51,788 bases of DNA from a virus. Lineage: Duplodnaviria; Caudoviricetes. The notes under the pieces are model-generated. The model searched no databases. It was not told the origin of the DNA and worked only from the letters and a program-made list of their open reading frames with translations. How positions within the stretch are numbered: position 1 is the first letter of the stretch; every line of letters begins with the position of its first letter. Below, piece by piece: positions 1,819-34,967 of the stretch. The stretch spans positions 1 to 51,788 of IMG/VR virus record IMGVR_UViG_3300044840_000008. One strand, 5' to 3'. The position numbers and the translations under genes were made by a program.

Positions 1819-2127
1819 GTGGCGAAACCCGGTTTGCGCCTCGCAGGCGCCGATGAGGAAGCACCGAAGTCGGCAACGAAACCCAAGTCGGTTTCGCAGG
1901 CGGCAGCTGGTGGGGATCACCGCGAACTGTTGGTAGCGATGCGGGAACGGATCGCAAACACCGTGTCTGACCCGTCGTGCCCGCCAAGGGATTTGGCTGC
2001 GTTGACGCGCAGGTTGCAGGACATCGCCAAGGAAATCGAGTCGATCGACCTTCGGGCCAAGCAGGAAGCGGCGGAGGGTGGCAGTGACGGCCCTGGCGAC
2101 GAAACCTGGAACTCAGAAGCTATCTGA
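1819..2127 (+). CDS. terS: Terminase small subunit
   Basis: PPRDLAALTRRLQDIAKEIE helix typical of actinophage small terminases; directly upstream of the large terminase. Confidence 0.75.
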   Translation: MAKPGLRLAGADEEAPKSATKPKSVSQAAAGGDHRELLVAMRERIANTVSDPSCPPRDLAALTRRLQDIAKEIESIDLRAKQEAAEGGSDGPGDETWNSEAI

Positions 2128-3523: not shown

Positions 3524-3690
3524 ACTCTTGGATTGCACTGGCATTGGCGGTGATTGCCGTACTCGCGTACTCGGCGATCGTAGCCGGTGCGGCAGTCATC
3601 TGGGGCTTGGGCGTCGCACTGCTGACCAGTGGTGTCCTACCACTGGTGGCGGTCATCTTCTACGTGCTCTATGACCCGGACAAAGCCTGA
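3520..3690 (+). CDS. Small two-TM membrane protein
   Basis: GTGA overlap; two hydrophobic stretches; common position between terminase and portal. Confidence 0.65.
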   Translation: MNSWIALALAVIAVLAYSAIVAGAAVIWGLGVALLTSGVLPLVAVIFYVLYDPDKA

Positions 3691-9907: not shown

Positions 9908-10007
9908 CCCCCCGCGCAGCCCCCCAATGGGGCACCTGATCTAGCCCAACCCAACCGCCGGGATGACCTTCCGGTTATTTCACCATCCCCGAAAGGAAGC
10001 CACAGAC

Positions 10008-15100: not shown

Positions 15101-15953
15101 GGCTTTCAACGTCGGCGTTCATCAGGGCGGCCCCGGCGGCGGTCACATGGCGGCAACACTGCCCAACGGCGTCAACTTCGAATCCGGCGGCGGGACAGGC
15201 CAAGGCGCAACCTACGGCGGCAACGCGGCTGGCGCGCTCAACCCTGAGTTCGAAAGCCAGTATTACATCCCCGTCGGTGGCGCTCCTGCAGCTTCTGCGA
15301 TCGGTCCGACACCCATTGGTGGGGGTGTCGGGCCGAACCTCTATTCCCCGGCGAATACCAGCCCCGGGCTCAGCAATCCTGCGGCTCCACTGCCCACCGG
15401 GGGCGGTATGGGCGGCGGCCTGGGTCTCAATGCCCCGCAATCGGGTATTGGTGGTTTCAACACCGGTGTCCAACCGGCTGCGAACCCCGGCGGTGGGGGG
15501 ATCGGCATCACCCCCGGAGGAACCCTCGACTCTGCGCTGACCGCAGCAGCGTCGATCATGCCCGGTGGCGGAGCAGCTGCGCAGGTCGCCATCAAGGAAG
15601 CATCGCGTGCCATCCAATTCGCTGGCCAGGCCGCCAGTATCGGCGTTTCCGGTCTCATGGAGACTGTTCTCCCAGCCGGTTCCCCTCTCGCCGCCAATTC
15701 GTGGTTCTCGAAGATCGCTGGCGGCCTGGCCGGTGCCCGCCCCGCATCCCCCAACAAGGCGGGCGGACCCAACGGCGGGCAACCCGGGCAAGCAGCACCA
15801 CCCATGGGCACCCCAGCCAGTGGGCAGGGCGCAGGCCCCGCACCGGGTCCGGGTGTGACGGTGAACTACACCAACAACCAAGCCACCGAAGACCGCGCAG
15901 GCGCCGACCTAACCTCGCATCTGACGGCGATGAACTCCGGGGTCGGTCACTGA
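12108..15953 (+). CDS. Tape measure protein (probable ATT start, 1281 aa)
   Basis: Longest ORF, Ala/Gly-rich; frame open from 12087; AAGGAGGT 5 nt before ATT12108; first in-frame ATG is 12336; DCSG...GH...E domain near the C-terminus. Confidence 0.92.
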   Translation: MSVFIDVKSRFDDASGKKAAEEAKAYFANAGTSAGNDFSGNFAKAVESDGKIRAAADKVADSLDKITAAEAKRATQMEKSKAVNEAITKAEADLVKLRGVDHVKAAEEILSLEKSLGDLRQKSIDIDNKLVVSSAAVTRANRDKARAVSEAGDAYRKMGNDADDAGKKLDELKSKLSGIGDGGAGFAKLNLGLTGIGLLPAAATAITEVAGALNQLAGAGFAVPGIFAGIASSVGVGALGMHGMSDAIKAVDKASDGTKSSVEAANKALAGLDPTAAGVVKTVVGLKGTLTDLEHLSAGNMFAGVSNDLKGLAAADLPAATRGVDGLSKALNQNLREAIRSLGTSSSQGFLDRIFGNTADAQSKLTQAINPIVHAVGELSAVGSDSLPRLATDIGNIADRFDRFISAADSSGKLDKWINDGITGFEQLGNTVLNIGKSFESVVQAAGGGTGLLGTLESASQRLATFLDSANGQQTLSRFFAEGRDTLGQLKDIAVQAGPILAGVFQSGLAAAHLWLPVIKDVLQTINSIPGGAQAVVGAFAAWESIKGVASLATSLNGIANILKLILPEAATAGAGGISAALAGITLPAWMASLMAVAGPAAVVAVAAGGGIALGQWSDPEGKTNEIVATGRGGRGANAGALARGGFGSAPTPSPGYSGGYSGGGGSFDIDGRRPAPGYEGFLNPNWKPVLDTAPGGPGTFRRRDGSLGTLPSKDGAIPGTPGVSSYTDPAITSGGGSGAAGTPFIDPSKYMAGDPLAGMPAAVAGSDPQKVFEADSALITNTHDLEQKKLALQVLEAKGTATQQELLTAKNDLQEKERSLYDAQAKDIAARTNQMKQSTQDLKDVFAPMDQDFGLSKGIPGLVENLTKLFGNIALAGTIAKSPTLQAAAASLMAPQGSGSGTASGPGYGYGSGGGGAGFANPNVNAMIATAQAGSGGKYGAASDLANGLSDCSGAVSDLYEVLKDGQSTPARDFTTADFATPAGAAKLGFQPGYMPGAFNVGVHQGGPGGGHMAATLPNGVNFESGGGTGQGATYGGNAAGALNPEFESQYYIPVGGAPAASAIGPTPIGGGVGPNLYSPANTSPGLSNPAAPLPTGGGMGGGLGLNAPQSGIGGFNTGVQPAANPGGGGIGITPGGTLDSALTAAASIMPGGGAAAQVAIKEASRAIQFAGQAASIGVSGLMETVLPAGSPLAANSWFSKIAGGLAGARPASPNKAGGPNGGQPGQAAPPMGTPASGQGAGPAPGPGVTVNYTNNQATEDRAGADLTSHLTAMNSGVGH

Positions 15954-20341: not shown

Positions 20342-21594
20342 GTGAGGCGCCTGACTACGCCACTGCGATCCCGAACCTGGCGTCCATTCATACGATGCCC
20401 ACCCTTCCGGGTGAGGCAGGGCAGATCGGGCTGACGCAGGACCAGCTGGAAACCTTCGTCAAGAATTTGATCGAAGGCATCGTCCGGGAAGTCGTCCTCG
20501 ACGTCGTCGGTGTCCTGCTTCCCGGGCCAGCTGCTCAGCAGTTGGCGAACTGGGCCGGGGACATCGTCGACCAATTCTTCAACATCGGAAGCTTGTTCAA
20601 CGGGGTAGACCTGTCCTCCGGCAGTCTGAACCTGTCAGACGTGTGGACCGGCGTCATCAACGTATTCCTCAACCCGCTCAACCTGATCGAACTTGGCGGC
20701 CAGAGTCTCACCAACCTCGCGTCCCTGCTGGGCATCAACATCAACCAGTCCACGGGGACATTCGACCCGATTGATGCGTTGGTCGTCGCTCCCGTCCAGG
20801 GTGTCCTGACGTTGCTCGACAACATGTTCAACGCCACCGCCACCACTACGGGAACGGGGCACACTCAGGATGAGGTTGCGACCGCGTTGACCGGCCAGAC
20901 CGACACCGTTGCCGGTACCGCGTCCACGTTGGCACAAGTGGTCGCCGGATTCGGTGCGGGCACCCCCGACGCCGACGACTTCGAGCGCACCTCCAGCGTG
21001 AACTTGGGTGCGAACTGGATGAACCTGTTTAGCTCCGGGACCGGGCCGTTGGCGACCCCAAATGGGCATGACGCTCACTACGGAGGATCCGCAGAGTACT
21101 TGTCGATCAAGACGGACATTCAAGCCTCCACGGACCACCAAATCGTCTCTGTCATTCTCGCCCAGGCGATTCCGGCGTGGGGATTCTTCACCCCCATCCC
21201 CTTCGGCGGCTACAACGACATCTGGCTTAGGTGTACGAACTTCACCACGTGGGCCACCCGAACGGGAATTAGGCTGAGGATCAACTCTGCCGCGTATGCG
21301 GCGGGTTACAACTTGTCGTGGTTCAATGCCGGAACCGAAACCATCCTCGCCTCCAACTCCATGCCATCGGTACCCGGTACTGGTGCGGTCATCTCATTGG
21401 AAGCTGGCGCGGGCGGCACCAATCTGCGGTTCGTCGCCAGCCTCAACGGTTCACCGTTCATGGACTTCACCGACACTGGCACGTCGTCGTTCGGTGCGTC
21501 GTACCTCTACCGGGGGATGGGTGGAAACACGGGCACTGGCGGCGGCCCCATCCAGGGTTCAGCTGACCTCAAGGGCTGGACGGCGCAGGGATGA
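20338..21594 (+). CDS. Minor tail protein with C-terminal lectin-like beta domain
   Basis: DDFER...LGANW and GASYLYRGMG motifs; ATGA overlap. Confidence 0.75.
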   Translation: MSEAPDYATAIPNLASIHTMPTLPGEAGQIGLTQDQLETFVKNLIEGIVREVVLDVVGVLLPGPAAQQLANWAGDIVDQFFNIGSLFNGVDLSSGSLNLSDVWTGVINVFLNPLNLIELGGQSLTNLASLLGININQSTGTFDPIDALVVAPVQGVLTLLDNMFNATATTTGTGHTQDEVATALTGQTDTVAGTASTLAQVVAGFGAGTPDADDFERTSSVNLGANWMNLFSSGTGPLATPNGHDAHYGGSAEYLSIKTDIQASTDHQIVSVILAQAIPAWGFFTPIPFGGYNDIWLRCTNFTTWATRTGIRLRINSAAYAAGYNLSWFNAGTETILASNSMPSVPGTGAVISLEAGAGGTNLRFVASLNGSPFMDFTDTGTSSFGASYLYRGMGGNTGTGGGPIQGSADLKGWTAQG

Positions 21595-21857
21595 CAAGCC
21601 CGGAAGATCCGCCGCCCGCACCGTCCCCGGAGGATGTACAGAAGTTCATCGAGGACTTCCACAACTCGTACCCGACGCCTGCCGTGCACGAAGGCGTCGA
21701 CAGTCCGATGTTGGTTGCCTTCACGGCCATCCGGCAGTTCGTAGAAGAGGTCCGCGGCACACAAGCCTCCACCACCAACCACGTCGAGACCCTCACGTGG
21801 CTGCACGCCGAGCTCGCGCACGCAGTGAACACACAAGACGATGGAGTTGCCGAATGA
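21591..21857 (+). CDS. Hypothetical tail-region protein
   Basis: ATGA overlaps at both ends. Confidence 0.6.
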   Translation: MTSPEDPPPAPSPEDVQKFIEDFHNSYPTPAVHEGVDSPMLVAFTAIRQFVEEVRGTQASTTNHVETLTWLHAELAHAVNTQDDGVAE

Positions 21858-23902
21858 CTTTGCCTAGCTTCGCCGTTACGGGGAACCTGTTCGACATTCC
21901 CGGGCAGAACGACGGCAGTCACCTCCTCACCACCGGATTGAAGGCGCGCGTCGAGTTCACCCCCAACGTCACCGGCCCGGTGAAGTGGGAAGACGCCAAC
22001 TACTGGATCAAACCGGTCGGGGTGACCGTCAGTTCCGACGGATCGCTCTCCGATGTGGATGCCCCAATCCTGCTACTGGCCAACGACGCCGGGTTGAACG
22101 TCTCCGGCATTCAGTGGACCGCACACATTCTCATCCCCGGCGCGAAGAGTATCGACGTCACCTTCAACGCCCCCGGTGACGGACAGTCCGTGGACTTGGC
22201 GGCGGTAACCCCGGCGCCCGCAGCCCCAGTGGACGGGGATGTGCCCGACATCCCCGACTGGAATGATCTGGGCGGTAAACCGGCGGTCATTGCGGCCGGG
22301 GCGACGCAAGCTCTGGCCCGCACTGCGATAGGCGCTGTCGCGGCAGCTGACATCACCACGGCAGTGAACGCCGTGATCAATGGCGCCCCGGGCGCTTTGG
22401 ACACCCTCAACGAGTTGGCTGCCGCGTTGGGTGACGACGCCAACTTCGCGACTACCGTCACCAATGCTCTTGCCGGGAAGGCGCAGGGATTAACCGCCAC
22501 CGCAGTGAAGACGGCCAACTACACGGCGGCCGTTGGGGATCTGGTGCTCGTCGATGCATCATCTGGGGCGATAACGATCACCGCCCCAACGGCACCGGCG
22601 GACAAGTCGCGGATCGGTGTGAAGCTCATCAGCGTGTCCGTCCTGAATGCCGGGTTCGCCGCTACGCTCACCCGTGGCGGCTCGACTGACGTCTTCAACA
22701 AAGCCAGCGGTTCTACATCGCTGACGTTGGATGACCAAAACCAGGTGATGATCTGTCAGTACATTGCCGCTACCGGCGTGTGGGTGGTGGAGGACAACCC
22801 ATCACGGGCTTCGCTGGATGCGCGGTATCTGCCGGGGAATCTGAAGGTCAACTTCGCCGGGAAAGCCAACTCCTCTTCTGTTCCGAAGCTGTTCGACACA
22901 CTGCAGCCATTGTCCGAGCTCGTTGGTGTGGGCACGAATTCGCAGGGCATCGTCAACAACGGTGCCTACACGTTCGCCCCGACCAACTCGTCTGGCTCAG
23001 CGGCGGACTATCTCCGCTTCCAACTGCCTGCGAACATCACTAGGGGAAGGCTCACGTACCAGTTGGCTGGTGCGGGTGGGGTGTGCATGGCCTTCGGTAA
23101 GCAGGCCATCGCCGCAGGCCAGGTTCCTGACTTGTCGCAGCACCTTTCGATGGGTTCCACCAACTTCAGCCTCGGCTACTGGGACGGCCCCACCGGCGGC
23201 AACACGGGATTCCATTCGCTGAACACGACGTCGTGGACGACGTACGGGCAGGCCCCCACCCTCGACGGGTTCACCACCTACACAGTGGAAACCGTGCACG
23301 TCGGGAGCAAGATTTACATTTTCCTGCCCGACGGGTCTTCGATCTGGGTGACCAACGCGGCCGTCTCCGGCAACGCGGGACCGTACGGGTTCATCGAGTG
23401 CTTCAACAACGTGGGCACCGATGCCCCTGCAAGGATCGTCAGCTTTGAGGCGTGGACTGGTGTGCAGCCGGTCCCGTTGAACCGTCCGTGGGTGTTGTCC
23501 CGCAGAGCCGTCACGACCACCACCACCACACTGACCGCCTCTACCCCCACGAACCCAGCGGGGATCGTGTCCAACACGTTCCTCGCCCCGGCTACCGGGG
23601 CGATCAAGTGCACCATGTCGGTGTTCTTCAACGTCGTCACCGCCGGCAACATTTTCATGGGCTGCATCCCGTATGCGACCGGCTCATCGAGGTTTGGTGG
23701 GGCGTATTACGACCAGGTGCAATCCACGTCGGGTGTGCAGATGCGGACGGTGGTGCAGATCCTCACCGGCCTGACTCCGGGGCAGTGGTACACCGTTCTG
23801 CCGGAGGTGATGTCCACCGCGTCGGACACGCAGTACCTCATCAACACCGCGCAGGGCAAGTACCACTCGCTGACCGTCGAACCGTATCTGGGTGCGGCAT
23901 GA
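21854..23902 (+). CDS. Tail fibre / receptor-binding minor tail protein (682 aa)
   Basis: GGAG RBS and ATGA overlap; W.DLGGKP, ARTAIGA, APGALDTLNELAAALGDDANFATTVTNALAGK fibre motif; beta-rich C-terminus. Confidence 0.8.
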   Translation: MTLPSFAVTGNLFDIPGQNDGSHLLTTGLKARVEFTPNVTGPVKWEDANYWIKPVGVTVSSDGSLSDVDAPILLLANDAGLNVSGIQWTAHILIPGAKSIDVTFNAPGDGQSVDLAAVTPAPAAPVDGDVPDIPDWNDLGGKPAVIAAGATQALARTAIGAVAAADITTAVNAVINGAPGALDTLNELAAALGDDANFATTVTNALAGKAQGLTATAVKTANYTAAVGDLVLVDASSGAITITAPTAPADKSRIGVKLISVSVLNAGFAATLTRGGSTDVFNKASGSTSLTLDDQNQVMICQYIAATGVWVVEDNPSRASLDARYLPGNLKVNFAGKANSSSVPKLFDTLQPLSELVGVGTNSQGIVNNGAYTFAPTNSSGSAADYLRFQLPANITRGRLTYQLAGAGGVCMAFGKQAIAAGQVPDLSQHLSMGSTNFSLGYWDGPTGGNTGFHSLNTTSWTTYGQAPTLDGFTTYTVETVHVGSKIYIFLPDGSSIWVTNAAVSGNAGPYGFIECFNNVGTDAPARIVSFEAWTGVQPVPLNRPWVLSRRAVTTTTTTLTASTPTNPAGIVSNTFLAPATGAIKCTMSVFFNVVTAGNIFMGCIPYATGSSRFGGAYYDQVQSTSGVQMRTVVQILTGLTPGQWYTVLPEVMSTASDTQYLINTAQGKYHSLTVEPYLGAA

Positions 23903-23991
23903 CCATCGGGCTCCTCATCATGGCCGGGCTGTGGCTGGTCGTGAAAGTGGTTGCCGCCAAGGAACACATCGAAGGGTTGACCAATGGCTAA
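23899..23991 (+). CDS. 30-aa membrane microprotein
   Basis: ATGA overlap; MTIGLLIMAGLWLVVKVVAAKEHIEGLTNG. Confidence 0.4.
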   Translation: MTIGLLIMAGLWLVVKVVAAKEHIEGLTNG

Positions 23992-24139
23992 CTTCCCCGA
24001 TTGGGCGTGCGGTGAATGCGCTGTCATGCAGGACGGTGACGCCGACCGCGACATCCACAACGACCAGGCCATCTGCGCGAAGTGCGTGAAGAAGTTGGGT
24101 AAGAAGATCACCCGCCCCGAGGGGATCGAAGCACCCTAG
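23984..24139 (+). CDS. 51-aa CxxC...CxxC microprotein
   Basis: GAAGGG RBS; MANFPDWACGECAVM...AICAKCVKK. Confidence 0.55.
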   Translation: MANFPDWACGECAVMQDGDADRDIHNDQAICAKCVKKLGKKITRPEGIEAP

Positions 24140-24154
24140 CTCGGGAGGTCCGCA

Positions 24155-24280
24155 ATGGCGCGGTATGGCTTCGGCTGCCTCATCGGCTGCTTCCTTGGCG
24201 TCCTTTGCGCTGCCGTGGCTGGGGGCTGCTGGCTGATTTTCGGTGGCGAGACCTTCGTCGACCACTTCATCGACTTCTAA
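24155..24280 (+). CDS. 41-aa membrane microprotein
   Basis: GGGAGG RBS; MARYGFGCLIGCFLGVLCAAVAGGCWLIFGG... Confidence 0.55.
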   Translation: MARYGFGCLIGCFLGVLCAAVAGGCWLIFGGETFVDHFIDF

Positions 24281-24285
24281 CTTTC

Positions 24286-24311
24286 CCCGCTACCGACTGG
24301 TAGCGGGTCTT
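24286..24311 (+). terminator. Hairpin between the tail and lysis regions
   Basis: CCCGCTACC-gact-GGTAGCGGG followed by TCTT. Confidence 0.55.
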
Positions 24312-24333
24312 CGCCATGCCTGAAAGGACCCAC

Positions 24334-25530
24334 GTGTTCACCAGTTACATCCGTCGCCCCCGCACATCGAACCCCGTCTCACTCACCCCGAGACAGGTCG
24401 CCACCGCGTATCACTTCCCGCTCGACAAGGCCACGGGGAAGGGGTACACGGGCGGGATCATCGAGCTCGGCGGCGGCTACACCCTCAAGCAAGTAGACCA
24501 GTACTTCACCCAGCAGGGTTTACACGCGCCAACATTCGTGTCCGTACCCGTCGCGGGAGGGTCGAACACCGAGGACGGTGTCGACGGTGCCGACGGGGAA
24601 GTGCAGCTCGACATGATCGTCGCCGGAGCAATAGCAACGGGTGCGACGTTCCGCGTGTACTTCGCGGGAAACACCGACGCCGACTTCCTTGCCGCTTTGA
24701 AGCAGGCAACGGGTGAGTGTGACGGCGTCTCCATATCTTGGGGCGCAGCGGAATCCGATTGGTCCGCGACGGTGATGGATCAGTTCGAAACCGTCATCAA
24801 ATCCGCTAGAGCCAAGGGTGTCCCGGTGTTCGCCGCGGCCGGTGACTCGGGGTCGAAGGACTCCACCACGTCCAATCAGACTGACTTCCCAGCATCCTCC
24901 CCAAGCGCGATTGGTTGCGGCGGAACCCGGCTCACTCTCAATGCTGACGGTTCGCGTGCCGCAGAGGTGACGTGGGACGACTCAGACACCCAATCCGCAA
25001 CCGGCGGCGGAGTATCCAAACACTTCCCCGGTAGGGACGTTCCCGACGTTGCAGGCAACGCCGACCCCAACTCGGGTTACGAAATCCTCATCGACGGACA
25101 GTCCGAGGTCATTGGGGGAACCAGTGCCGTCGCCCCGTTGATGCTCGGCTTGCACGCTCTGTTGTGGGAGTTGAACGGTGGGAAGGGCTTCGACTTCCTC
25201 AACCTCATCGTCACGAACCCGCAGAGTTGTTTCGACGTCACGGCGGGAGACAACGGCGGATACCGTGCCGGGCCTGGCAGGGATGAAGTCACCGGGTTCG
25301 GTGTACCCGACGGCGGCCTGTTGGCTGCTGCACTGCTTGGGGGAGTAGCACCACCGGCACCACCAGTCCCGCCGGTGAATCCGCCGGCCACCACGTTCCC
25401 GGTCGCCGCAATCAACGCATGGCTGACCCACAAGCACGACTACACCAAACCCGAAGCCGCCGCAGCCGCCGCGATCATCGCTTGGGCGCCATCCGCAGGA
25501 ATCACCCTGGGCCCGTTGGTGGTCAGGTGA
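24334..25530 (+). CDS. S53-family (sedolisin/kumamolisin-like) serine-carboxyl protease, catalytic domain only
   Basis: GAAAGGA RBS before GTG24334; IIELGGG, DGEVQLD (Glu/Asp), SISWG, AAGDSG (oxyanion Asp), DFPASSP, CGGTRL, ATGGGVS, PDVAGNADP, GGTSAVAP (Ser), FDVTAG and AGPGRD..TG.G.P Ca-site. Confidence 0.93.
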   Translation: MFTSYIRRPRTSNPVSLTPRQVATAYHFPLDKATGKGYTGGIIELGGGYTLKQVDQYFTQQGLHAPTFVSVPVAGGSNTEDGVDGADGEVQLDMIVAGAIATGATFRVYFAGNTDADFLAALKQATGECDGVSISWGAAESDWSATVMDQFETVIKSARAKGVPVFAAAGDSGSKDSTTSNQTDFPASSPSAIGCGGTRLTLNADGSRAAEVTWDDSDTQSATGGGVSKHFPGRDVPDVAGNADPNSGYEILIDGQSEVIGGTSAVAPLMLGLHALLWELNGGKGFDFLNLIVTNPQSCFDVTAGDNGGYRAGPGRDEVTGFGVPDGGLLAAALLGGVAPPAPPVPPVNPPATTFPVAAINAWLTHKHDYTKPEAAAAAAIIAWAPSAGITLGPLVVR

Positions 25531-25676
25531 TCGAGGACCGCTGCATCATCGACGGCTGCCCCGCCTGCGACCACCAGTCGCTCAGAGCGGCGTTCAAGCA
25601 GTTCCGCTACGTCCTACGTGCTTGGACCCTCCATCGCCTCTTCCAAGCCCGCGCACTGTGGCGCGGCCACACCTAA
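25527..25676 (+). CDS. 49-aa hypothetical protein
   Basis: GTGA overlap with the protease stop; MIEDRCIIDGCPACDH... Confidence 0.5.
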   Translation: MIEDRCIIDGCPACDHQSLRAAFKQFRYVLRAWTLHRLFQARALWRGHT

Positions 25677-25692
25677 ACCGAAAGGCCCTACC

Positions 25693-26022
25693 GTGCAGAA
25701 CTTCCTCGTATCAATCTTGGTCAAGCTGCTGTCCGATCCCAAGGTCCAGGCGTTCCTGATGCAGATCGTCGACCGCCTCGCCGAAACCCTCCTACCGAAG
25801 TTGGCCGCAGTAATCCCCGCAGCCGTAGCCGCCGGGATCAAAGGCCTGGGTGGGCTCATCCCCGACATCCATTTGCCGGGGTTGGACAACATCACCGAGA
25901 CCATCCGCAGCGACGTCAACGCCCTACTCCCCGAGGACATCGACATCCCGATCCTTTCGGATGCCTTCGAGAAGATCACCGGCCTTGACCTCACCGACAT
26001 CCTCACGGGACGCCAGAAGTAA
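25693..26022 (+). CDS. Ms6 Gp1-like lysis accessory (lysin export chaperone-like)
   Basis: Directly upstream of lysin A; amphipathic Leu/Ile/Asp/Pro-rich sequence (IVDRLAETLLP, DIPILS) resembling Ms6 Gp1 as I recall it. Confidence 0.55.
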   Translation: MQNFLVSILVKLLSDPKVQAFLMQIVDRLAETLLPKLAAVIPAAVAAGIKGLGGLIPDIHLPGLDNITETIRSDVNALLPEDIDIPILSDAFEKITGLDLTDILTGRQK

Positions 26023-27866
26023 TGGCAGTCCGCGTTGTCAACGGCAACACCAGCACTGAGGATGGATGGCCGCTAGTCGACCAGGCTGGATGTACGTGGA
26101 TCACCGTCCCCGGCACCAACCCGAAGGTGACGATCCAGGTCCAGACGGGCATCCCGGCCGTGCTACTCGGCGCGTGGGAAGCGGACTGGAACGCGTACAT
26201 CGAGCCGCTCGAGGACCCCACCACCGGATGCTGGACCGAAGGTAACTCGGTACTAGGTCAGCCCGGCGAGAACAACGGGTCGAACCACCTCGGGGGCACA
26301 GCTGTTGACAGCTGCTGGGAGCGGCACCCCATGGGGCCGGAAGCCCCCAGCGCGGCATCTGGTTTCTCGCAGGCGCAGTACGACGAGATGCAGCGCATGA
26401 AGGCGTACTACACCTTCACCGCGAAGGACGGGCGCGTCATCCAACTCGTCTGGTGGGCCAACGACTGGGACACCCCCCACGACAGTATGCACAGCCAAAT
26501 GGGCTACTACACATACCAGTACCGCGGCGAAGTGCAGGACTGGATCAACACCCACATCCGTGCTGACGACTTCTCAACCTACCGGCGGGGCAACGCTCCA
26601 CCGCCGCCCATTGGTCTGACCGCGCGGAACCTTTCGGATGCAATGGGTGGCGCTGTCTCCCTCGACCGCTACGCGCAGCTGCTCCCCGGCTACCGGGCGG
26701 CGTGCGTTGAAGCTGGGCTATCGGGGAACCTGAACCGGCTGGCCATGTTCGCGGCTCAGTTGGGTGAGGAGTCCGGCGGCCTGAAGTGGATGGAAGAGAT
26801 TGCGTCCGGCTCGGAGTACGAGGGCCGTTCGGATCTGGGGAACACCCAACCGGGCGACGGGGTGCGGTTCAAGGGCCGCGGACCCATCCAAATCACGGGC
26901 CGCAACAACTACTCGCAACTGTCCCAGTGGGCGTTCGGCAAGGGCTACGTCCCGTCTCCGACGTTCTTCGTGGACAACCCAACTCAACTCTCCACCGACC
27001 AGTACGGGTTCCTCGGACCGGTCTGGTACTGGACTGTCGCCCGCCCACAGATCAACTCCCTCTGCGATGCGGGGGACATCGTCGGCGTCACCAAAGCCAT
27101 CAACGGTGGCACCAACGGCCTTCAGGACCGCACCAACCGGTGGAACCACTGCCTAGCCATGGGGTTAGCGCAACTCGACGTACAAGGCACCACAGGCCCG
27201 ACACCCGACACAGGAGATGATGACTTGAGCGCCGAAGCCGAACGCATGATCAAGGAACTCTACGACGAGTACCGCAAGGAAAAGACAGGTCCTTCAAGGT
27301 CGTTCATGGTGCCCGACGGGAATCCCGTCGACTCGCCGCTGGGGTTCCTCTGGAACATCGACGGCAACGTCGAGAACATCAACATCACACTCGGCTACCT
27401 GTTCGGCACGACATTGGCGGAGGAATTCGTCAACACGGTTGCCAGCACGGGCGTCGCGCCAGCGTCCTGGGCAGGCAACGTCAACCGAGCATGGCTGCAG
27501 CAGTACGGCCAGCAATGGTGCCTGGGTCTCATTGATTTCAGGGCGGCCATACAGACGGCTCTCCAGAGCGCAGGTGCTGTGCCGGTCGTCAACAACGCAG
27601 CGCCAACCATCGTCACTGCGTCGATCACACCCGCTCAAGCTCAGGACATCGCCAACAGGATCGGCCAGCAGATCGCAATCCCGGCCACCCCGCCTGCCGC
27701 GACAGTGCCAGCGGTCGTCGACAGTCCGGCCGGTTTGGGAGACATCGTGAAGACGGTCGTCGACGCGGTGGAGCAACTGAAACTCTCCGATGCGCTATCG
27801 ACCCAGGACTACGCCACCCTCGCAGCCTCTATCAAGATCCTCGAAATGAAGAACGGAACCGCATGA
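26022..27866 (+). CDS. lysA: Lysin A (M15-like peptidase + GH19 glycoside hydrolase + C-terminal domain)
   Basis: SNHLGGTAVD...DSMH peptidase motifs; AQLGEESGGL, YEGRSDLGN, FKGRGPIQITGRNNY, TKAINGG.NG GH19 motifs. Confidence 0.95.
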   Translation: MAVRVVNGNTSTEDGWPLVDQAGCTWITVPGTNPKVTIQVQTGIPAVLLGAWEADWNAYIEPLEDPTTGCWTEGNSVLGQPGENNGSNHLGGTAVDSCWERHPMGPEAPSAASGFSQAQYDEMQRMKAYYTFTAKDGRVIQLVWWANDWDTPHDSMHSQMGYYTYQYRGEVQDWINTHIRADDFSTYRRGNAPPPPIGLTARNLSDAMGGAVSLDRYAQLLPGYRAACVEAGLSGNLNRLAMFAAQLGEESGGLKWMEEIASGSEYEGRSDLGNTQPGDGVRFKGRGPIQITGRNNYSQLSQWAFGKGYVPSPTFFVDNPTQLSTDQYGFLGPVWYWTVARPQINSLCDAGDIVGVTKAINGGTNGLQDRTNRWNHCLAMGLAQLDVQGTTGPTPDTGDDDLSAEAERMIKELYDEYRKEKTGPSRSFMVPDGNPVDSPLGFLWNIDGNVENINITLGYLFGTTLAEEFVNTVASTGVAPASWAGNVNRAWLQQYGQQWCLGLIDFRAAIQTALQSAGAVPVVNNAAPTIVTASITPAQAQDIANRIGQQIAIPATPPAATVPAVVDSPAGLGDIVKTVVDAVEQLKLSDALSTQDYATLAASIKILEMKNGTA

Positions 27867-28201
27867 GCACACCACTGAACATCGACACCATCGTGCCCAC
27901 CAAGTGGAAGGGTCTGGTCGCGCTCATCGGCACAGGACTGAGCTTTCTGGTGCCTTACATCATTCAGGTGGAGCAGTTCCTGCCGTCGCCGTGGCCGGCA
28001 GTCATCGGCGCCGTGCTCTGGGTGCTGACCGTCAGCGGTGTCGTACGCGCCCCGTACGTACCTACAGGTGCTGTGCTGGCACCGAACACCCCTGCCGTCG
28101 CCGTGGCAGCGCAGCAAGCCGTCACGCAGGCGGCAGTCTCGCAGGCTCAGCCCACGTCAAAGGGTGGCTGGACGAGCCCCTACCCACGCCCGCGCCCGTG
28201 A
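27863..28201 (+). CDS. Holin
   Basis: Two TM segments (WKGLVALIG..., VIGAVLWVLTVSGV); between lysin A and lysin B. Confidence 0.8.
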   Translation: MSTPLNIDTIVPTKWKGLVALIGTGLSFLVPYIIQVEQFLPSPWPAVIGAVLWVLTVSGVVRAPYVPTGAVLAPNTPAVAVAAQQAVTQAAVSQAQPTSKGGWTSPYPRPRP

Positions 28202-29211
28202 TAGTTGGTGGGGCCTGGGTCGGCTTAGGTCTCGGAGACAGCAGTCCCGAAATCCGCAAGATCAAAGGATTCATGCGGATCTGGTACCGGTCCTACGCCG
28301 GCACGCTGGCCGACACCGAACTGTACGACCAACAGATGGTGTCGGTCGTCTACATCATGCAGGGCAGGCTCCGCGACAGCGGAAAGCTCCCCGCCAACAA
28401 GGTGAACGGCATCATCGGTGCGTCGACCAAGGTGGCCATGGGCTACCTGGCTGCCACTACCGTCGACATCCGCCCTGTGTTGTTCACCGTGTGCGGTACC
28501 GGGGTGCCGTGGTGGATTGGCCCTGACGCCGACATGGCTCGCGCTGTGGAGAATCAGTACCTCTGGCAGCCCATCGGGTACCCGGCGGCGCCCGTACCGA
28601 TGGGTCCCAGCATCGCAGAGGGCCGGGGCGAGCTAGTGAATCAGTTCACCATCCACCGCGTCCAGGTCGAGCGCAACGGCGCGGTGCTGGCCGGGTACAG
28701 CCAGGGCGCGTGCGTGACCTCTGAGTGCTGGGAGGGTGACATCAAGCCCGTTGGTGGCGCACTGAACTGGGCCAAGCCCTACATCCGCAAGGCGGTCACA
28801 TGGGGCAATCCCGACCGTGAGCAGGGGAAGGTCTGGCCGGACTTCGCCGCGGGCCAGGACGTCGCTCCGGCTAATAGCTCTGGGGTGACCGGCACGCTGA
28901 TGGTCAATACACCGGACTGGTGGCGCAACTATGCCCACAAGGGCGACCTGTACGCCGCCGGCGGAACCGGTTCCCCTGGTGATGCGTCCAGCCAGGACAA
29001 AACGGCAATTTGGCAGATCATCCGCGGCACAAAGGTATTCAGTGGCCCGGACAGTCTGCTGGCCCAGTTCCTGGAGATCGCCCAGTCGCCCATCCCCGGC
29101 GCGATCGGTGCGTTCAAGGCCATGTGGGATGCGGGTGCGTTCTTCGGCGGGGGGCTGACGCAGCACACCAGCTACAACGTCGGTCCTGCGATCGACTACC
29201 TCCGAAGCTAG
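28198..29211 (+). CDS. lysB: Lysin B (cutinase-like mycolylarabinogalactan esterase)
   Basis: GTGA overlap; VGLGLGDSSPEIRKIK N-terminus, GYSQGA nucleophile elbow, WGNP, GDLY, C-terminal His. Confidence 0.93.
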   Translation: MIVGGAWVGLGLGDSSPEIRKIKGFMRIWYRSYAGTLADTELYDQQMVSVVYIMQGRLRDSGKLPANKVNGIIGASTKVAMGYLAATTVDIRPVLFTVCGTGVPWWIGPDADMARAVENQYLWQPIGYPAAPVPMGPSIAEGRGELVNQFTIHRVQVERNGAVLAGYSQGACVTSECWEGDIKPVGGALNWAKPYIRKAVTWGNPDREQGKVWPDFAAGQDVAPANSSGVTGTLMVNTPDWWRNYAHKGDLYAAGGTGSPGDASSQDKTAIWQIIRGTKVFSGPDSLLAQFLEIAQSPIPGAIGAFKAMWDAGAFFGGGLTQHTSYNVGPAIDYLRS

Positions 29212-29213
29212 CA

Positions 29214-29339
29214 ATGGTCACCGATGCGCAGCTGGTCGTGGTGCTCGCCATCGTAGCCGTCTGGTACTTCGCGATCGTCACTACAGCCTTGACTACCGAA
29301 GCCCGCCACCGACGTTCAACCGAAGGGAGGACCCCGTGA
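29214..29339 (+). CDS. Single-TM microprotein
   Basis: LVVVLAIVAVWYFAIV; GTGA overlap with the next gene. Confidence 0.5.
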   Translation: MVTDAQLVVVLAIVAVWYFAIVTTALTTEARHRRSTEGRTP

Positions 29340-29746
29340 CGGGCTTCGACATACCGGAGTCGACAGTACGGGGGGCGTTCCACCGGACGTTGATGTATCA
29401 GATGCTGTGGATGGTCCTCGTCGGCGCCGTGATGTTGGCGATGCCGGATAGCCGATTCACGTCCTCCTCATGGCAGTTCATCGAAATGGCGCCCCACGGA
29501 GATGACCTCGTCGGCGCCGCCTACGTCCTCCTTGGCTGTGTCATGGCGTTCTGCCTGTGGCGGGAGGATCAGCGGGCGTTGAGCTTCGCGGTGGGTTTCG
29601 CCGGAATGTTGAACTGGACGATGGGAGTGTTCCTGCTCGTGGGTGCATTGAACGGCTCAAGCGGCGGTTTGGGTTTCCCCCTCGCCTTATACCCGGGCTG
29701 GCACATGATTTCCACGGCTGCGACTTTGTCCAAGGGCCGTGGCTGA
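29336..29746 (+). CDS. Multi-pass (about 4 TM) membrane protein
   Basis: GGGAGG RBS; four hydrophobic segments. Confidence 0.75.
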   Translation: MTGFDIPESTVRGAFHRTLMYQMLWMVLVGAVMLAMPDSRFTSSSWQFIEMAPHGDDLVGAAYVLLGCVMAFCLWREDQRALSFAVGFAGMLNWTMGVFLLVGALNGSSGGLGFPLALYPGWHMISTAATLSKGRG

Positions 29747-30239
29747 ACAGGTTGCGTGGCTGCGCAGGCGGCTACGGGCCTTCCTCACAGCCATCGACGC
29801 GGAGTCCATCGCCTCATTCCAGGCCATGTACTACACGCTGATCATCACGGCGGGACTGTATTTGGTGTTCGCCGCCACAGCACCGCCGCAGAACGTGGAA
29901 CCCGTCATGGGGCATCCGCAGTATCAGTGGTGGTTGGGGTTGAACATCGTGTGTCCGGCGATGTCGCTGATCGGACGAAGGTTGACGACTAGGGCGGGGA
30001 AAGCGGCTCCGGGGGAGCCGAATCCGGGTTTGGGTGCGGCGTGGATGCAGTTGACCGGGGATGCCGGGGTGTGGTTCGCGATCATCTTGTACGTCTGGTG
30101 TGTCGCAGCCACGTCCTGGTGGGGTCAGGGTTTGTATGGTGCTTTCTTCGTTCTGATGGGCATTCCGGGCGGGGGCATGTTCACGCTGCGCTCCTTCCGT
30201 AGGTTGTTGCAGATCAAGCGGCGTGAGAAGCGGCTGTGA
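29739..30239 (+). CDS. Multi-pass (about 4 TM) membrane protein
   Basis: Four hydrophobic segments, basic C-terminus. Confidence 0.75.
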   Translation: MAEQVAWLRRRLRAFLTAIDAESIASFQAMYYTLIITAGLYLVFAATAPPQNVEPVMGHPQYQWWLGLNIVCPAMSLIGRRLTTRAGKAAPGEPNPGLGAAWMQLTGDAGVWFAIILYVWCVAATSWWGQGLYGAFFVLMGIPGGGMFTLRSFRRLLQIKRREKRL

Positions 30240-30664
30240 TGAACAGCATCGACTCCGCGGTCACCGTCGCCGTCGCCGTCGTCTCCTCCGGTGGTTTGTG
30301 GGGGTTCATGCAGTTCATCGTTGGGCGGCGGTCGGAGGCTGCCCGGCAGATCGCGGAACGTGAACAGCGCGACTCCGACCGCAATACCTTGTTGGCGGAG
30401 GCGCAGCGTACCGCCCAAACCACCGCCTTGGAGAGTGTGGGCAAGGCCAACAAGGTTTTGAAGGAAACCTGCGACGACTGCCTGTCGAAGTTGCACAAGA
30501 TGGAGCGCCGCGACCTTCGTAGGGATCGTATCGAGGACGCCATGTTGGATGCGATGGTCGAAGTGGTTCCGCTACTCCCGGCTGATGGTGAGCAGACGGC
30601 AGCGTTGCGGGCGGCTATCCGCACCGCCAGACAGGCACGTTACGAGCTCGACGACGACAACTAG
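30236..30664 (+). CDS. Protein with N-terminal TM and coiled coil (possible lysis accessory)
   Basis: AVTVAVAVVSSGGLWGFMQFIV then charged helical region with CDDC. Confidence 0.75.
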   Translation: MMNSIDSAVTVAVAVVSSGGLWGFMQFIVGRRSEAARQIAEREQRDSDRNTLLAEAQRTAQTTALESVGKANKVLKETCDDCLSKLHKMERRDLRRDRIEDAMLDAMVEVVPLLPADGEQTAALRAAIRTARQARYELDDDN

Positions 30665-30686
30665 ACCTACTTACCCGACAAGCGAA

Positions 30687-30718
30687 AGCCCCGCCCACTC
30701 TTCGGAGTGGGCGGGGCT
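30687..30718. terminator. Bidirectional intrinsic terminator
   Basis: 14-bp perfect stem AGCCCCGCCCACTC-TTCG-GAGTGGGCGGGGCT with cUUCGg loop between convergent operons. Confidence 0.9.
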
Positions 30719-31016
30719 ATTCGTCGTCTGCGGGTAACTGCCCCACTGCAGGCGCATCGCCGCCGAGATGGCGCGCGTATTCCTCGGCTTCTTCGACGGA
30801 GTTGAACCCGAGCGCGCGCAGCATCTCGCCCCACGTCGGGCGTACCTCGGTCGTCGTGGTCTCAACGCCTTCGGCGCGGAGTTGAGCGTGGAACTCATCT
30901 TCGGACGGTCTTGGCATCAACGCCTCCTTGTGGTCTGCGCAGTCCCCGCAGTGTTCAGCATTATCGCCGTCTGCATCTCCGCAGACTTGGCAGTACCACT
31001 TAGGCCAGTCACTCAT
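30717..31016 (-). CDS. CxxC...CxxC hypothetical protein, paralogue of 47951-48217
   Basis: 66 of 84 residues identical to the + strand copy. Confidence 0.8.
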   Translation of the reverse strand: MSDWPKWYCQVCGDADGDNAEHCGDCADHKEALMPRPSEDEFHAQLRAEGVETTTTEVRPTWGEMLRALGFNSVEEAEEYARHLGGDAPAVGQLPADDE

Positions 31017-31206
31017 TGCTGGTCAGGTGGATCGTGATGCCGGGCAGACTCATCAGCACGCCGGTGAAGTGCTTGGCATGCTCGGCTTCGCTCATGTCCT
31101 CTTCGAGGCTGCAATCGCATCCGATTGGCTTGCCCCAGTAGTCGAAGACCAGGCGATGCTTCTTTACGGCTGCGCCGATCAGAGTCCGCACGTCCGAAAC
31201 GCTCAT
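31009..31206 (-). CDS. Small hypothetical protein (CxC...HxxH)
   Basis: AGGAG RBS; overlaps the next gene. Confidence 0.65.
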   Translation of the reverse strand: MSVSDVRTLIGAAVKKHRLVFDYWGKPIGCDCSLEEDMSEAEHAKHFTGVLMSLPGITIHLTSNE

Positions 31207-31254
31207 GTCATCTCCTATTTATAGGGACTACCGGGAAATCTCTACCTATGTCAG

Positions 31255-31605
31255 TTAGTCAGGCCAGCGGCCTTCGTAGACATCCGTTCGCTCGGGATGC
31301 GGCGTGATGCGGTACAGCACCTCACGATTGACCCCCTTGATGTGGAGAATTGACCGCAACCGGAAGCACGCCAAGTTGCTGTGTTCGTGAGCGTCGAAGC
31401 AAGTCTGTTCGTCGGAGAAGTCCATCCACAGCATCTCATCGGGCTCGTAGATGGCTCGGTCGAGGATCTCAGTCATGATCAGTACGTGCGGGTCCGCGTG
31501 GTCGATGTGCAGCTCATCGACCCACGTTCCTTCGTTGCGCTGCCTACGTATCAGGCATTCGCCCACGGTGTTCATTGTGCTCCTGTCGGCTCGCCGATAG
31601 CCCAT
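31255..31605 (-). CDS. Hypothetical protein (start may be 31576)
   Basis: Tiles the leftward block; AGGAG before ATG31576. Confidence 0.65.
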   Translation of the reverse strand: MGYRRADRSTMNTVGECLIRRQRNEGTWVDELHIDHADPHVLIMTEILDRAIYEPDEMLWMDFSDEQTCFDAHEHSNLACFRLRSILHIKGVNREVLYRITPHPERTDVYEGRWPD

Positions 31606-33713: not shown

Positions 33714-33725
33714 AGATTGGACGCC

Positions 33726-34967
33726 ATGAGTCCCCACCGCAAGCCCGGCGACCCGTACAAGCGCAAGGACGGCCTATGGGTCGGCGCCGTCACGCTCCCG
33801 AGCACGGACGGCAAGCGCCGACGAGTGACGGTTTCATCGAAGGACTACAACACCGCCGTCGCCGAGCTCCGCAAGCTCCGCAAGAAAGTCGCCAAGGGCG
33901 AGATCTCCACGACCGGCAATACCACAGTGAAGACGTGGCTCGAGCATTGGCTGGAGAACATCCAACGTCCTCACATCCGCCCGAGCACGTATCGGTACTA
34001 CGAGGGAACCGTCCGCGTTCACCTCATTCCGCATCTAGGTGGGAAGCGACTCAACCGGCTCACCCCGGAGGATGTGCGGCAAATGCACAAGGCCGTCCAG
34101 GTCGCTTCCGATCGCAACGCGCAGAAAGCCCAGCAGGTTCTTCAGAGGGCATTGAAGGACGCCGAAGCCGAGGGGCTGATCGACCGGAACGTGGCCGCGG
34201 TGGTCCGCAAGCCCAAGCACTCCCCGGAGGAGAAGGACGCGCTGTCGATAGAAGTGGCTGCGCATGTCCTCAGGACAGCTGAAGCATCACGTGATGAATT
34301 GGCGTCGCGGTGGGCGGTCGCCTTCTGGACGGGAGCGAGGCAGGCTGAATTGCTGGGCCTGACGTGGGACCACGTGGACTTCGACAAGGCGCAGTTCCTG
34401 ATCGAGTGGCAGCTGCAGGGAATGCCCATGTCTCACGGCTGCGGAGAAGAAGTCGAGGGGAAGTTTCCGTGCGGGAAGGTGCGGCCAGGATTCTGCCCAC
34501 AGACGAAGTTCAACGCTCCGCCCGGGTTCGTCGCCCGCGAGTGCCACAAGAGTCTGTTCTGGACCCCTACGAAGACCAGGAAGGGCAAGCGCAAGGTTCC
34601 CATCTTACTGCCCCTGGTCGACGTGCTACGGGAGCACAAGGCCAATGATGGCTACAACCCCCACAATCTCGTCTGGCACCACCCCGACGGTCGGCCCTGG
34701 TCGCAAACCGTAGACGCCAAGGCCTGGAAGGACCTGCTGATCCGGGCGAAGGTCGGCCACGTCGGGGTGCACAACATCCGCCACACCACCGCCACTCTTC
34801 TCCAGGCCGGCGGTGGCGACGAGATGAACAGGATGGCCCTGATGGGGCACTCCTCAGCGGCTTCGCAGCGCGGCTACATCCACGTGGAGGATTCCGGGGT
34901 GCGCAAGATGCTCGAGGTACTCAACGCGCTGACGCCCAGCCCTCCACCTGTTCACGAAGTGAACTAG
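33726..34967 (+). CDS. int: Tyrosine integrase
   Basis: N-terminal arm-binding YKRKDGLW; GARQAE (R), HNIRH, MGH, RGY catalytic motifs; TAGATT 7 nt before ATG33726 suggests a leaderless start. Confidence 0.96.
   Translation: MSPHRKPGDPYKRKDGLWVGAVTLPSTDGKRRRVTVSSKDYNTAVAELRKLRKKVAKGEISTTGNTTVKTWLEHWLENIQRPHIRPSTYRYYEGTVRVHLIPHLGGKRLNRLTPEDVRQMHKAVQVASDRNAQKAQQVLQRALKDAEAEGLIDRNVAAVVRKPKHSPEEKDALSIEVAAHVLRTAEASRDELASRWAVAFWTGARQAELLGLTWDHVDFDKAQFLIEWQLQGMPMSHGCGEEVEGKFPCGKVRPGFCPQTKFNAPPGFVARECHKSLFWTPTKTRKGKRKVPILLPLVDVLREHKANDGYNPHNLVWHHPDGRPWSQTVDAKAWKDLLIRAKVGHVGVHNIRHTTATLLQAGGGDEMNRMALMGHSSAASQRGYIHVEDSGVRKMLEVLNALTPSPPPVHEVN

Follow-up and report, generated by a model that had tools for sequence, protein, structure and literature searches.

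The S53 peptidase and its domains

The DNA analyzed here, which we call the window, is the whole of IMG/VR virus record IMGVR_UViG_3300044840_000008 (51,788 bp, linear, estimated to be 91% complete). A gene at 24334-25530 encodes a peptidase of family S53 (the sedolisins) and lies between the last tail-fibre gene and the genes for lysin A, a putative holin, and lysin B (Table 1). The predicted protein resembles kumamolisin throughout its peptidase unit, and by our searches it lacks a prodomain. The missing prodomain is its most unusual feature, which the preliminary description of this sequence did not stress.

The assignment to S53 comes from sequence and from predicted structure. In a phmmer search of the PDB, the protein matched kumamolisin-As (1sio, E = 3.8e-68, where query residues 20-349 cover residues 3-364 of the mature chain), pro-kumamolisin (1t1e, 3.3e-66), sedolisin (9.3e-16), and human TPP1 (3.7e-07). 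The Pfam scan found PF00082 alone (31.3 bits against a cut-off of 21.8) and no prodomain family. We also built an AlphaFold2 model from an alignment of 31 homologues (pLDDT 84.4, pTM 0.81), and its best PDB match with Foldseek was kumamolisin-As (E = 2.4e-36, TM score of 0.85 by target, 44% identity).

The protein has the features by which S53 peptidases are recognized: a subtilisin-like alpha/beta fold, a Ser-Glu-Asp triad (S270, E95, and D99), an oxyanion Asp in place of the Asn of subtilisin (D177), and two Asp residues of the calcium site (D307 and D323). (Equivalences to kumamolisin were counted along the 1sio alignment, and all eight codons were checked in the DNA.) We take D316 and D338 of kumamolisin to be ligands of its calcium site. 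The phage protein also has the Glu-Trp pair of the kumamolisin subfamily (E50 and W142); in kumamolisin this pair, Glu32-Trp129, is linked to the catalytic triad, and it is typical of the subfamily. Across 31 homologues with 56-84% identity, E50, E95, D99, W142, D177, and S270 are invariant, and both calcium-site residues are at least 90% conserved. So, the S53 hallmarks that had been read from this gene by eye hold up. By its peptidase unit, the predicted protein belongs to the kumamolisin subfamily of S53, and it is probably an active serine-carboxyl endopeptidase.

Three other identities were considered and rejected. First, the protein is not an endolysin: it matches no peptidoglycan- or mycolyl-hydrolase domain, and neither it nor its C-terminal domain contains a peptidoglycan-cleaving or cell-wall-binding domain that Pfam or PHROG recognizes. 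Second, it is not the head-maturation protease, as it matches no prohead protease family. (The phage has a separate gene for this protease, as the preliminary description had stated.) Third, it is not a mycosin, the S8 protease of type VII secretion (24.9 bits for TIGR03921 against a cut-off of 278.75).

An acid optimum and synthesis as a proenzyme are listed as traits of the S53 family in PMC2635056. The phage protein does not show the second of these. Only 13-19 residues precede the point that corresponds to the start of mature kumamolisin, and the prodomain family Pro-kuma_activ (PF09286) has no match at E <= 1 in the six frames of the whole record. As a positive control, PF09286 was found in frame upstream of the cellular S53 domains in genomes G010 (both copies) and G042 and of the S53 domain at the viral locus L020. 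As judged from these searches, the gene lacks a prodomain. To our knowledge, every characterized sedolisin has a prodomain outside of its peptidase unit. The phage protein also has neither a signal peptide nor a membrane segment, as hydropathy peaks at 0.18 in its first 60 residues.

What stands in place of the prodomain is a short segment with a conserved motif (P15 is invariant and I12 is at least 90% conserved in 31 sequences). Residues 13-19 align to the last residues of the linker of pro-kumamolisin (1t1e), just before the mature N-terminus. The segment is modeled with a pLDDT of 50-70.

At the other end, the peptidase unit is followed by a Pro-rich linker (pLDDT below 50 at residues 351-355) and a small domain that is modeled as two helices. 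A hidden Markov model (HMM) of this domain, built from 26 sequences, found it on the S53 proteins of the window and of seven related loci (L002, L003, L006, L007, L008, L010, and L011), and on no lysin or tail protein of the loci that we compared. The domain has no Pfam match at E <= 1 and no usable match in the Atlas, where short-helix structural look-alikes fell below the bar for naming. Residues 352-404 returned only themselves from a set of 5.8 billion proteins, in which a piece of 53 amino acids (aa) is too short to reach significance. The 10 longest relatives in the clade have C-terminal extensions with another 150-400 residues, in which Pfam finds no domain.

Table 1. Features of the window (residues of the S53 protein are in the 404-aa numbering; ORF, open reading frame)
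Feature	Positions	Strand	Remarks
Large terminase	2078-3523		
Portal	3690-5075		
Head-maturation protease	5075-6016		phrog_80 at 1.2e-43
Major head protein	6016-7479		
Major tail protein	9963-11081		
Tape measure	12336-15953		
Minor tail and fibre genes	up to 23902		
Last tail-fibre / minor tail gene, 682 aa	21854-23902	+	16 tail-fibre-type PHROG matches, best 1.4e-13
Putative small ORF, 30-aa hydrophobic peptide	23899-23991	+	Kyte-Doolittle maximum 2.2
Putative small ORF, 51 aa, Cys-rich	23984-24139	+	two Cys pairs, read from sequence
Putative small ORF, 41-aa hydrophobic peptide	24155-24280	+	Kyte-Doolittle maximum 2.2
Perfect hairpin	24286-24307	+	9-bp stem, 4-nt loop; just upstream of the S53 gene
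Ribosome-binding motif GAAAGGA	24322-24328	+	5 nt before GTG 24334
S53 (kumamolisin-type) peptidase gene	24334-25530	+	398 aa from GTG 24334; pI 4.6, 40.6 kDa
Short N-terminal segment, residues 7-19	24334-24372	+	I-R-x-P-R-T/S motif; replaces prodomain of ~170-190 aa
Catalytic domain, residues 20-349	24373-25362	+	
E50 = kumamolisin E32	24463-24465	+	
Catalytic E95 = kumamolisin E78	24598-24600	+	motif GEVQLD
Catalytic D99 = kumamolisin D82	24610-24612	+	
W142 = kumamolisin W129	24739-24741	+	
Oxyanion D177 = kumamolisin D164	24844-24846	+	motif AAGDSG
Catalytic S270 = kumamolisin S278	25123-25125	+	motif GGTSAVAP
Calcium-site D307 = kumamolisin D316	25234-25236	+	
Calcium-site D323 = kumamolisin D338	25282-25284	+	calcium loop
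Pro-rich linker, about residues 346-360	25351-25395	+	from sequence and alignment
C-terminal two-helix domain, ~40 aa	25396-25527	+	helices 363-371 and 378-394 (AlphaFold2 model)
Possible ORF, 49 aa, three Cys	25527-25676	+	GTG overlaps the S53 stop codon
109-aa gene (134 aa from GTG 25618)	25693-26022	+	phrog_3888 at 5.8e-12; phrog_6229
Lysin A, 614 aa	26022-27866	+	phrog_317 at 3.3e-106
Putative holin, 112 aa	27863-28201	+	by position and two hydrophobic segments only; hydropathy maximum 1.96
Lysin B, 337 aa	28198-29211	+	phrog_102 at 5.4e-90
Integrase	33717-34967		

The gene and its neighbours in the window

The open frame of the S53 gene opens at an ATG (24316), which would give a protein of 404 aa (24316-25530, + strand). 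The GTG at 24334 seems likelier to be the start because the ribosome-binding motif lies 5 nt upstream of it, because the ATG abuts the hairpin, and because homologues start at the equivalent of residues 5-8. (The motif GAAAGG also precedes GTG 25693 of the neighbouring 109-aa gene.) The gene had been described as having its own ribosome-binding site after a hairpin, and both are present. The 71-nt context of the hairpin has a folding energy of −20.1 kcal/mol (z = −1.64), a stability that 16 of 200 shuffles also reach. A conserved regulatory hairpin can be rejected, as a perfect stem of at least 7 bp is present upstream of S53 in only 4 of 16 loci. Nor did the terminator scan call the hairpin; it reported one weak terminator-like site, inside the 41-aa ORF. 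A promoter scan of 21000-31500 with a sigma-70-type consensus found no promoter-like site on the + strand, and the numbers of promoters and terminators were at or below the shuffle expectation. A search for scars of insertion found only short, imperfect two-copy repeats flanking the gene.

PHROG matches along the record give the layout of a temperate actinobacterial siphovirus, from the large terminase to the integrase. Within the tape measure protein, residues 854-1013 match an endolysin PHROG (phrog_971, 1.7e-11), which resembles a lysin-like motif inside a tape measure. A tblastn search with lysin A matched 1,408 deposited phage records, of which 1,216 are Mycobacterium phages; the best match is lysin A of phage Acolyte (51% identity). 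As lysin A matches mostly Mycobacterium phages and lysin B is present, the host is predicted to be Mycobacterium or a close mycolic-acid-containing relative. The base composition of the S53 gene fits that of its neighbours (G+C at third codon positions, or GC3, of 0.74 vs. 0.73-0.80).

Between the fibre gene and the S53 gene are three small ORFs, which could encode membrane or lysis-timing proteins or could be non-genes. They have no match in Pfam (all three), in PHROG (the 41- and 51-aa ORFs), or in NCBIfam (the 51-aa ORF). Downstream, S53 ends at 25530 and lysin A starts at 26022 on the same strand, with the putative holin and lysin B behind it. The order fibre, S53, lysin A, putative holin, and lysin B agrees with the earlier view of S53 as the head of the lysis genes. 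The closely spaced or overlapping frames of that description are found from the 109-aa gene onward: its stop overlaps the start of lysin A, and the putative holin overlaps both lysin A (ATGA) and lysin B (GTGA). Between S53 and the next gene with a family match, there is a gap of 162 nt unless the putative 49-aa ORF is real. That ORF, which would fill most of the gap, matches nothing in NCBIfam, and none of 17 related loci has a frame like it. The putative holin has no match in PHROG or NCBIfam, and lysin A has weak matches to Peptidase_M15_4 and Glyco_hydro_19, both under the Pfam cut-offs.

The 109-aa gene had been called Gp1-like. (The lysis module of phage Ms6 includes a chaperone, Gp1.) Its only PHROG matches are to two families without an assigned function, and neither NCBIfam nor a tblastn search of 50,697 phage records gave a match. 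So, these searches do not bear out the label, although no direct comparison with Gp1 was made. The protein has one hydrophobic segment (hydropathy of 1.75 at residues 38-56). In a related locus, the gene between S53 and lysin A (L003:7164-7508) has a weak match to an HNH endonuclease, under the Pfam cut-off, and so the gene in this slot appears not to be conserved between phages.

Relatives and their genomic settings

We searched the 50,697 deposited phage records with the S53 protein by tblastn and found no match at E <= 1e-5, although the records nearest to the window may lie outside this set. At E <= 1, the matches were seven records of large Bacillus phages, with S8-type proteases (E of 0.1-0.5, 27-30% identity over ~35% of the query). 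In the set of 5.8 billion proteins, 8,000 candidates were scored, and at least 7,876 proteins match at E <= 0.001. Of these, the top 120 are 55-80% identical to the window's protein (which itself appears at 100%), and almost all are 308-432 aa long. Annotation pipelines name many of the proteins "kumamolisin" (JGI) and some "S53 family peptidase" (NCBI); the species with the latter name are Mycobacterium colombiense, M. intracellulare, Mycolicibacterium sphagni, and Mycolicibacter heraklionensis. In a library of representatives at 50% identity, 9,390 proteins match at E <= 0.001, and 1,105 of them still do at E <= 1e-30. They are a mixture of proteins in which the match begins near residue 5-40 and proteins in which it begins near residue 120-200.

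Viral relatives are also numerous in IMG/VR, with at least 76 loci from 80 pattern hits (31-68% identity, G+C content of 24-74%). The arrangement is not unique to the phage of the window and belongs to a large clade. Among cellular genomes, we searched the 401 genomes of the family of G001, which is the assembly that holds locus L008 (Mycobacterium sp. E1747), and six match at E <= 1e-30. Of the 401, G001 alone has the phage type, in a 409-aa frame with 72% identity; the five remaining matches are frames of 525-564 aa with 45-51% identity. S53 genes were also seen on three contigs of giant-virus metagenome-assembled genomes (GVMAGs), with 36-38% identity to the window's protein. Two of these (L034 and L058) have a G+C content of 25-26% and N-terminal extensions of 109-130 aa; the third (L080) has a G+C content of 51% and only ~27 residues before the domain.

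For a phylogeny, we started from the catalytic domains of 340 matching rows, removed five that cover fewer than 280 profile positions, and excluded L001 (the entry for the window), the fragment L009, and 15 duplicate loci. A further 96 rows were lost to dereplication at 72%, leaving 239 tips for a FastTree; the samples are biased towards best hits. The length of the N-terminal extension was our proxy for the prodomain, and it is imperfect, as L055 and L068 have extensions of 117-132 aa without a PF09286 match. The window falls in a clade of 35 tips (support of 100), of which 34 have no more than 45 residues before the domain and are prodomain-less by this measure. The other tip, L006, has 61 residues, probably from an over-long start call. 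With the tree rooted at the midpoint, the half with the window has 120 tips (97 with no N-terminal extension, 13 with at least 100 residues, and 10 intermediate), including 42 of 61 viral loci as well as L055 and L068. The opposite half has 119 tips (92 with the extension, 22 without, and 5 intermediate), including the other 19 viral loci and all 7 cellular rows. A quick IQ-TREE of 96 rows places the window in a starred set of 13 rows (12 with no extension, 1 intermediate; SH-aLRT of 100) and in a larger starred set of 24 rows (21 with no extension, 3 intermediate; SH-aLRT of 99).

In the comparison with bacterial kumamolisins that had been suggested, the window sits in a clade that is prodomain-less in 34 of 35 tips. 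A single origin of the loss did not survive the comparison: it would have to account for 26 state changes over the 224 labelled tips of the FastTree, or for 16 in the IQ-TREE, where starred branches force at least 12 of them.

We also asked if a C-terminal extension replaces the prodomain, and this was rejected. Counted over single tips, the two are strongly associated, with extensions of 30 aa or longer in 88 of 119 prodomain-less tips vs. 36 of 105 prodomain-bearing tips (odds ratio of 4.6 for the classes of >=30 aa vs. <=15 aa, P = 1.6e-7, Fisher test). However, 12 phylogenetically independent pairs do not support it (2.5 pairs the same way, 1.0 the other way, and 8.5 with no difference; median P of 0.625).

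To compare genomic contexts, we used 16 non-redundant loci with at least 53% identity in S53 (the window is counted, L013 is merged with L012, and L009 is dropped). In 9 of the 16, an endolysin gene lies within the next two genes downstream of S53. The endolysin is of the phrog_317 type or like the window's lysin A in the window, L011, and L003; of phrog_700 in L002, L007, and L008; of phrog_12609 in L004, with a holin-family match at its C-terminus; and of phrog_3084 in L005 and L017. In all nine, S53 shares the orientation of the late genes and lies among them. Upstream of S53 are minor tail or fibre genes in the window, L002, L003, L007, and L008; for L004, L005, and L006, the two upstream genes that were tested in each had no PHROG match. 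At L004, the endolysin lies in a 369-aa frame (L004:7107-8216) that matches phrog_12609 at residues 32-194 and the holin family phrog_443 at residues 295-366. The frame may be a fusion of lysin and holin, or the ORF call may have merged two genes.

When 18 loci were compared all against all, S53 was the sole gene of the window with a match in each of the 17 others. Lysin A is similar only to genes of L003 (37%) and L011 (49% over 198 aa), and the window's fibre has no similarity to the upstream genes of any of the 17. The flanks of these loci are mosaic.

The mosaic bears on one possible function, that S53 is a maturation protease that trims the tail fibre or processes lysin A or the holin. 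The gene adjoins both the fibre gene and lysin A. Kumamolisins take substrates that contain Pro or resemble collagen, and collagen-like minor tail families are found near some distant homologues. (Some phage fibres carry self-cleaving chaperone domains.) However, the upstream fibres share no similarity, the endolysins are spread over four PHROG families even though the S53 proteins keep 56-69% identity, and S53 is ~20 kb away from the lysis genes in two relatives. Processing of the lysin or holin, which the preliminary description had listed among the options, is unlikely because the adjoining lysins and fibres differ among phages that share S53, and we consider maturation in general to be very improbable.

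The recurrence of the gene speaks to whether it is an inactive relic or an artefact of assembly. The lack of a prodomain could mean that the protein is a truncated remnant that does not fold, and the window is a virus record derived from a metagenome. Against this, the frame is intact, with no stops, hundreds of relatives share the same length, the catalytic and calcium-site residues are conserved across the 31 homologues, and the gene's composition fits that of the neighbouring genes. The arrangement also recurs in independent assemblies, including two Mycobacterium isolates, so that the chimera that had been raised as a way for the description to fail was not borne out. The sequence comparisons show selection on every catalytic residue of what is predicted to be an intact enzyme, and a relic or artefact is barely credible.

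Possible roles and known systems

Our best reading of these contexts is that S53 is a mobile accessory late gene of temperate mycobacteriophages and their prophages, which is most often found between the tail genes and lysin A. As to what the protein does, we favor a late, autonomous accessory protease that is freed at lysis and cuts proteins of the host envelope or outside of the cell, and that is possibly gated by acid. We give this reading a probability of roughly 0.45. Judging from the gene's position, the protein would be made late, in the cytoplasm, and without an export signal. Sedolisins need acid pH, as is known from work on kumamolisin. In a neutral cytoplasm, the enzyme may be harmless, and the inhibitory prodomain might be dispensable there because the chemistry of sedolisins needs acid pH. 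The protein would leave the cell only once the holin and the lysins have opened the envelope. Its substrate is more likely to be a host or environmental protein than a phage protein encoded next door, because phages that share S53 differ in their fibres and lysins. Such cleavage could aid release or dispersal or could eliminate the receptors that debris carries, above all where the habitat is acidic. The C-terminal two-helix domain on its Pro-rich linker may serve as a targeting or regulatory module.

Several observations weigh against this reading. First, the gene is missing from all 50,697 deposited phages, including over 1,000 mycobacteriophages with a related lysin A. As no deposited phage has the gene, S53 seems to be dispensable for the lysis of laboratory hosts. 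Second, sedolisins are textbook secreted or lysosomal proteases, for which the prodomain is needed for folding and latency, and the phage enzyme lacks it. Third, the linkage to lysis genes, which had been proposed as a test, is partial: it stands at 9 of the 16 close loci, and the others go a different way. At L010, S53 lies 1.6 kb upstream of the large terminase with lysin B ~22 kb away, and at L024, on a record with 100% completeness, ~5 kb separate it from a downstream terminase with 61% identity, an HNH-type gene follows it, and lysin B is ~20 kb away. In both, S53 is distant from the lysins and still within the late region. At L012, L014, L015, and L016, the neighbours were tested singly and no endolysin was found; S53 is followed by a minor tail protein at L012 and by a ParA-like gene at L016. 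At L006, the downstream genes are cellular (prepilin-peptidase family and chorismate synthase). That locus (L006:7854-10926) is on the chromosome of an uncultured actinobacterium, a metagenome-assembled genome. Its S53 is of the phage type, with 66% identity and the C-terminal domain, and is a gene at a prophage edge or a captured copy.

The more distant loci are mixed as well. We surveyed 56 loci (seven close ones and 49 of lower identity), taking neighbours of at least 120 aa within 2.5 kb. The figures are bounds, as they come from the 25 commonest families and one protein may match several. Among the families listed for 128 downstream proteins (54 loci) are endolysin families with 2, 1, 1, and 1 members, along with DNA polymerases, a ligase, a terminase, and integrases. 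For 144 upstream proteins (56 loci), the families listed include endolysin families with 3, 2, 2, and 2 members, several tail-fibre and collagen-like minor-tail families, four HslV-family peptidases (phrog_1040), and four DNA primases. The matches of four upstream neighbours to phrog_1040 suggest that a subgroup of phages keeps S53 beside a second peptidase. In this survey, endolysins are a small minority of the neighbours and contexts are mixed, which is a fourth point against a role at lysis. Fifth, the position right after a tail-fibre gene suits a role linked to the tail equally well.

This last point leads to a different proposal, that S53 is a tail- or virion-borne enzyme that cuts mycobacterial surface proteins at adsorption or entry, with its C-terminal domain docked to the virion. 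S53 follows the last fibre or minor-tail gene in the window, L002, L003, L007, and L008, it precedes a minor tail protein in L012, and a minor tail gene comes after the lysin in L004. Upstream of S53 at the distant loci, some neighbours belong to tail-fibre families (collagen-like minor tail families included), and a small terminal domain on a flexible linker could dock. However, the protein has no recognizable virion-anchoring or fibre domain, its C-terminal domain is on no other protein of these loci, and the C-terminal extensions of 10 longer relatives contain no Pfam domain. Also, the upstream tail genes are unrelated among phages that share S53, so that a docking partner is not conserved nearby, and in L004 and L005 the endolysin adjoins S53 while the two upstream genes have no tail match. 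On balance, we think that a virion-borne enzyme is unlikely.

Alternatively, S53 could be cargo (a moron), for instance to degrade defence or regulatory proteins inside of the cell or to benefit the lysogen, in which case the slots where it is inserted are merely permissive. In favor of this, S53 forms a cistron by itself, served by a ribosome-binding site of its own, preceded by a hairpin, and followed by up to 162 nt of gap. The mosaic flanks, with S53 as the sole common gene, and its varied genomic position among relatives would fit as well. Its distribution is sporadic, too (the phage type in 1 of the 401 genomes of the family of G001). On the other hand, the sigma-70-type promoter scan described above found no promoter-like site on the + strand, and the gene has the orientation and location of a late gene in the window and in all nine loci with linked endolysins. 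From what is known of the family, the chemistry of sedolisins is ill-suited to a neutral cytoplasm, and without a signal peptide, a lysogen could not secrete the protein. We judge cargo of this kind to be quite unlikely.

Returning to the protease freed at lysis, we can imagine a bolder form of it. Prodomain-less sedolisins that are silenced by neutral pH might constitute a third, protein-cutting release enzyme beside lysins A and B. Such an enzyme would be switched on by acid (in the wall, in soil, or in a phagosome-like compartment) and would strip envelope or matrix proteins and the receptors on debris. We regard this form as doubtful.

The literature offers little to set beside the phage gene. 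We found no paper on S53 enzymes in phages, on prodomain-less sedolisins, or on the phage-borne clade in full-text searches of the literature (supplementary files were not covered), which agrees with the earlier statement that no role for S53 in phage lysis is known. The enzyme family is known, and its setting in a phage is not described in print. A large lineage that has no prodomain or export signal and keeps its catalytic residues is a natural test of how sedolisins fold and are restrained. The gene also points to an accessory activity beside the lysis genes of temperate phages of the mycobacterial type that is missing from all deposited phage genomes, many of them from phages isolated on M. 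smegmatis. Hence, phages of environmental or slow-growing mycobacteria may face a problem of envelope or habitat that laboratory phages do not. If it is true that the enzyme cuts mycobacterial envelope proteins at acid pH, then it might be a useful reagent.

Among known systems, the phage protein is closest to kumamolisin and kumamolisin-As (MEROPS S53; PDB 1gt9 and 1sio; pro-form 1t1e), which it resembles in fold, triad, oxyanion Asp, the Glu32-Trp129 pair, and the calcium-site Asp. It differs in that kumamolisin has a prodomain of ~190 aa while the phage protein has neither prodomain nor signal peptide, in that it misses a loop of ~20 residues between the SKHFP and GRDVP segments, in that it adds the Pro-rich linker and the two-helix C-terminal domain, and in being encoded by a phage. 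The cellular pro-S53 peptidases of the family of G001 (525-564 aa) belong to the same family and are 45-51% identical over the catalytic domain. Unlike the phage protein, they have PF09286 in frame upstream, they fall in the other half of the tree, and they were found in 5 of the 401 genomes searched. The nearest relatives are the phage-borne, prodomain-less S53 proteins from IMG/VR and Mycobacterium assemblies (55-80% identical, 335-430 aa), which share the same architecture and among which the window's protein is a member. Nothing essential differs between them except for the flanking genes.

With the mycobacteriophage lysis cassette (lysin A, lysin B, and holin), the likeness is in neighbourhood and orientation. 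S53 is not homologous to any lysis protein, and the deposited mycobacteriophages are without it. With modular lysins, it shares the layout of a catalytic domain, a linker, and a small terminal domain. The S8 proteases of large Bacillus phages (phrog_3677, "peptidase S8 family protein") share the subtilase fold superfamily with the phage S53 protein; their family and catalytic triad are different, and the similarity is very weak. Finally, the intracellular subtilisins of Bacillus are cellular S8 proteases of the subtilase fold that have no classical prodomain and carry a short N-terminal extension. By this description, they offer a possible analogy for how a sedolisin without a prodomain could be kept quiet.

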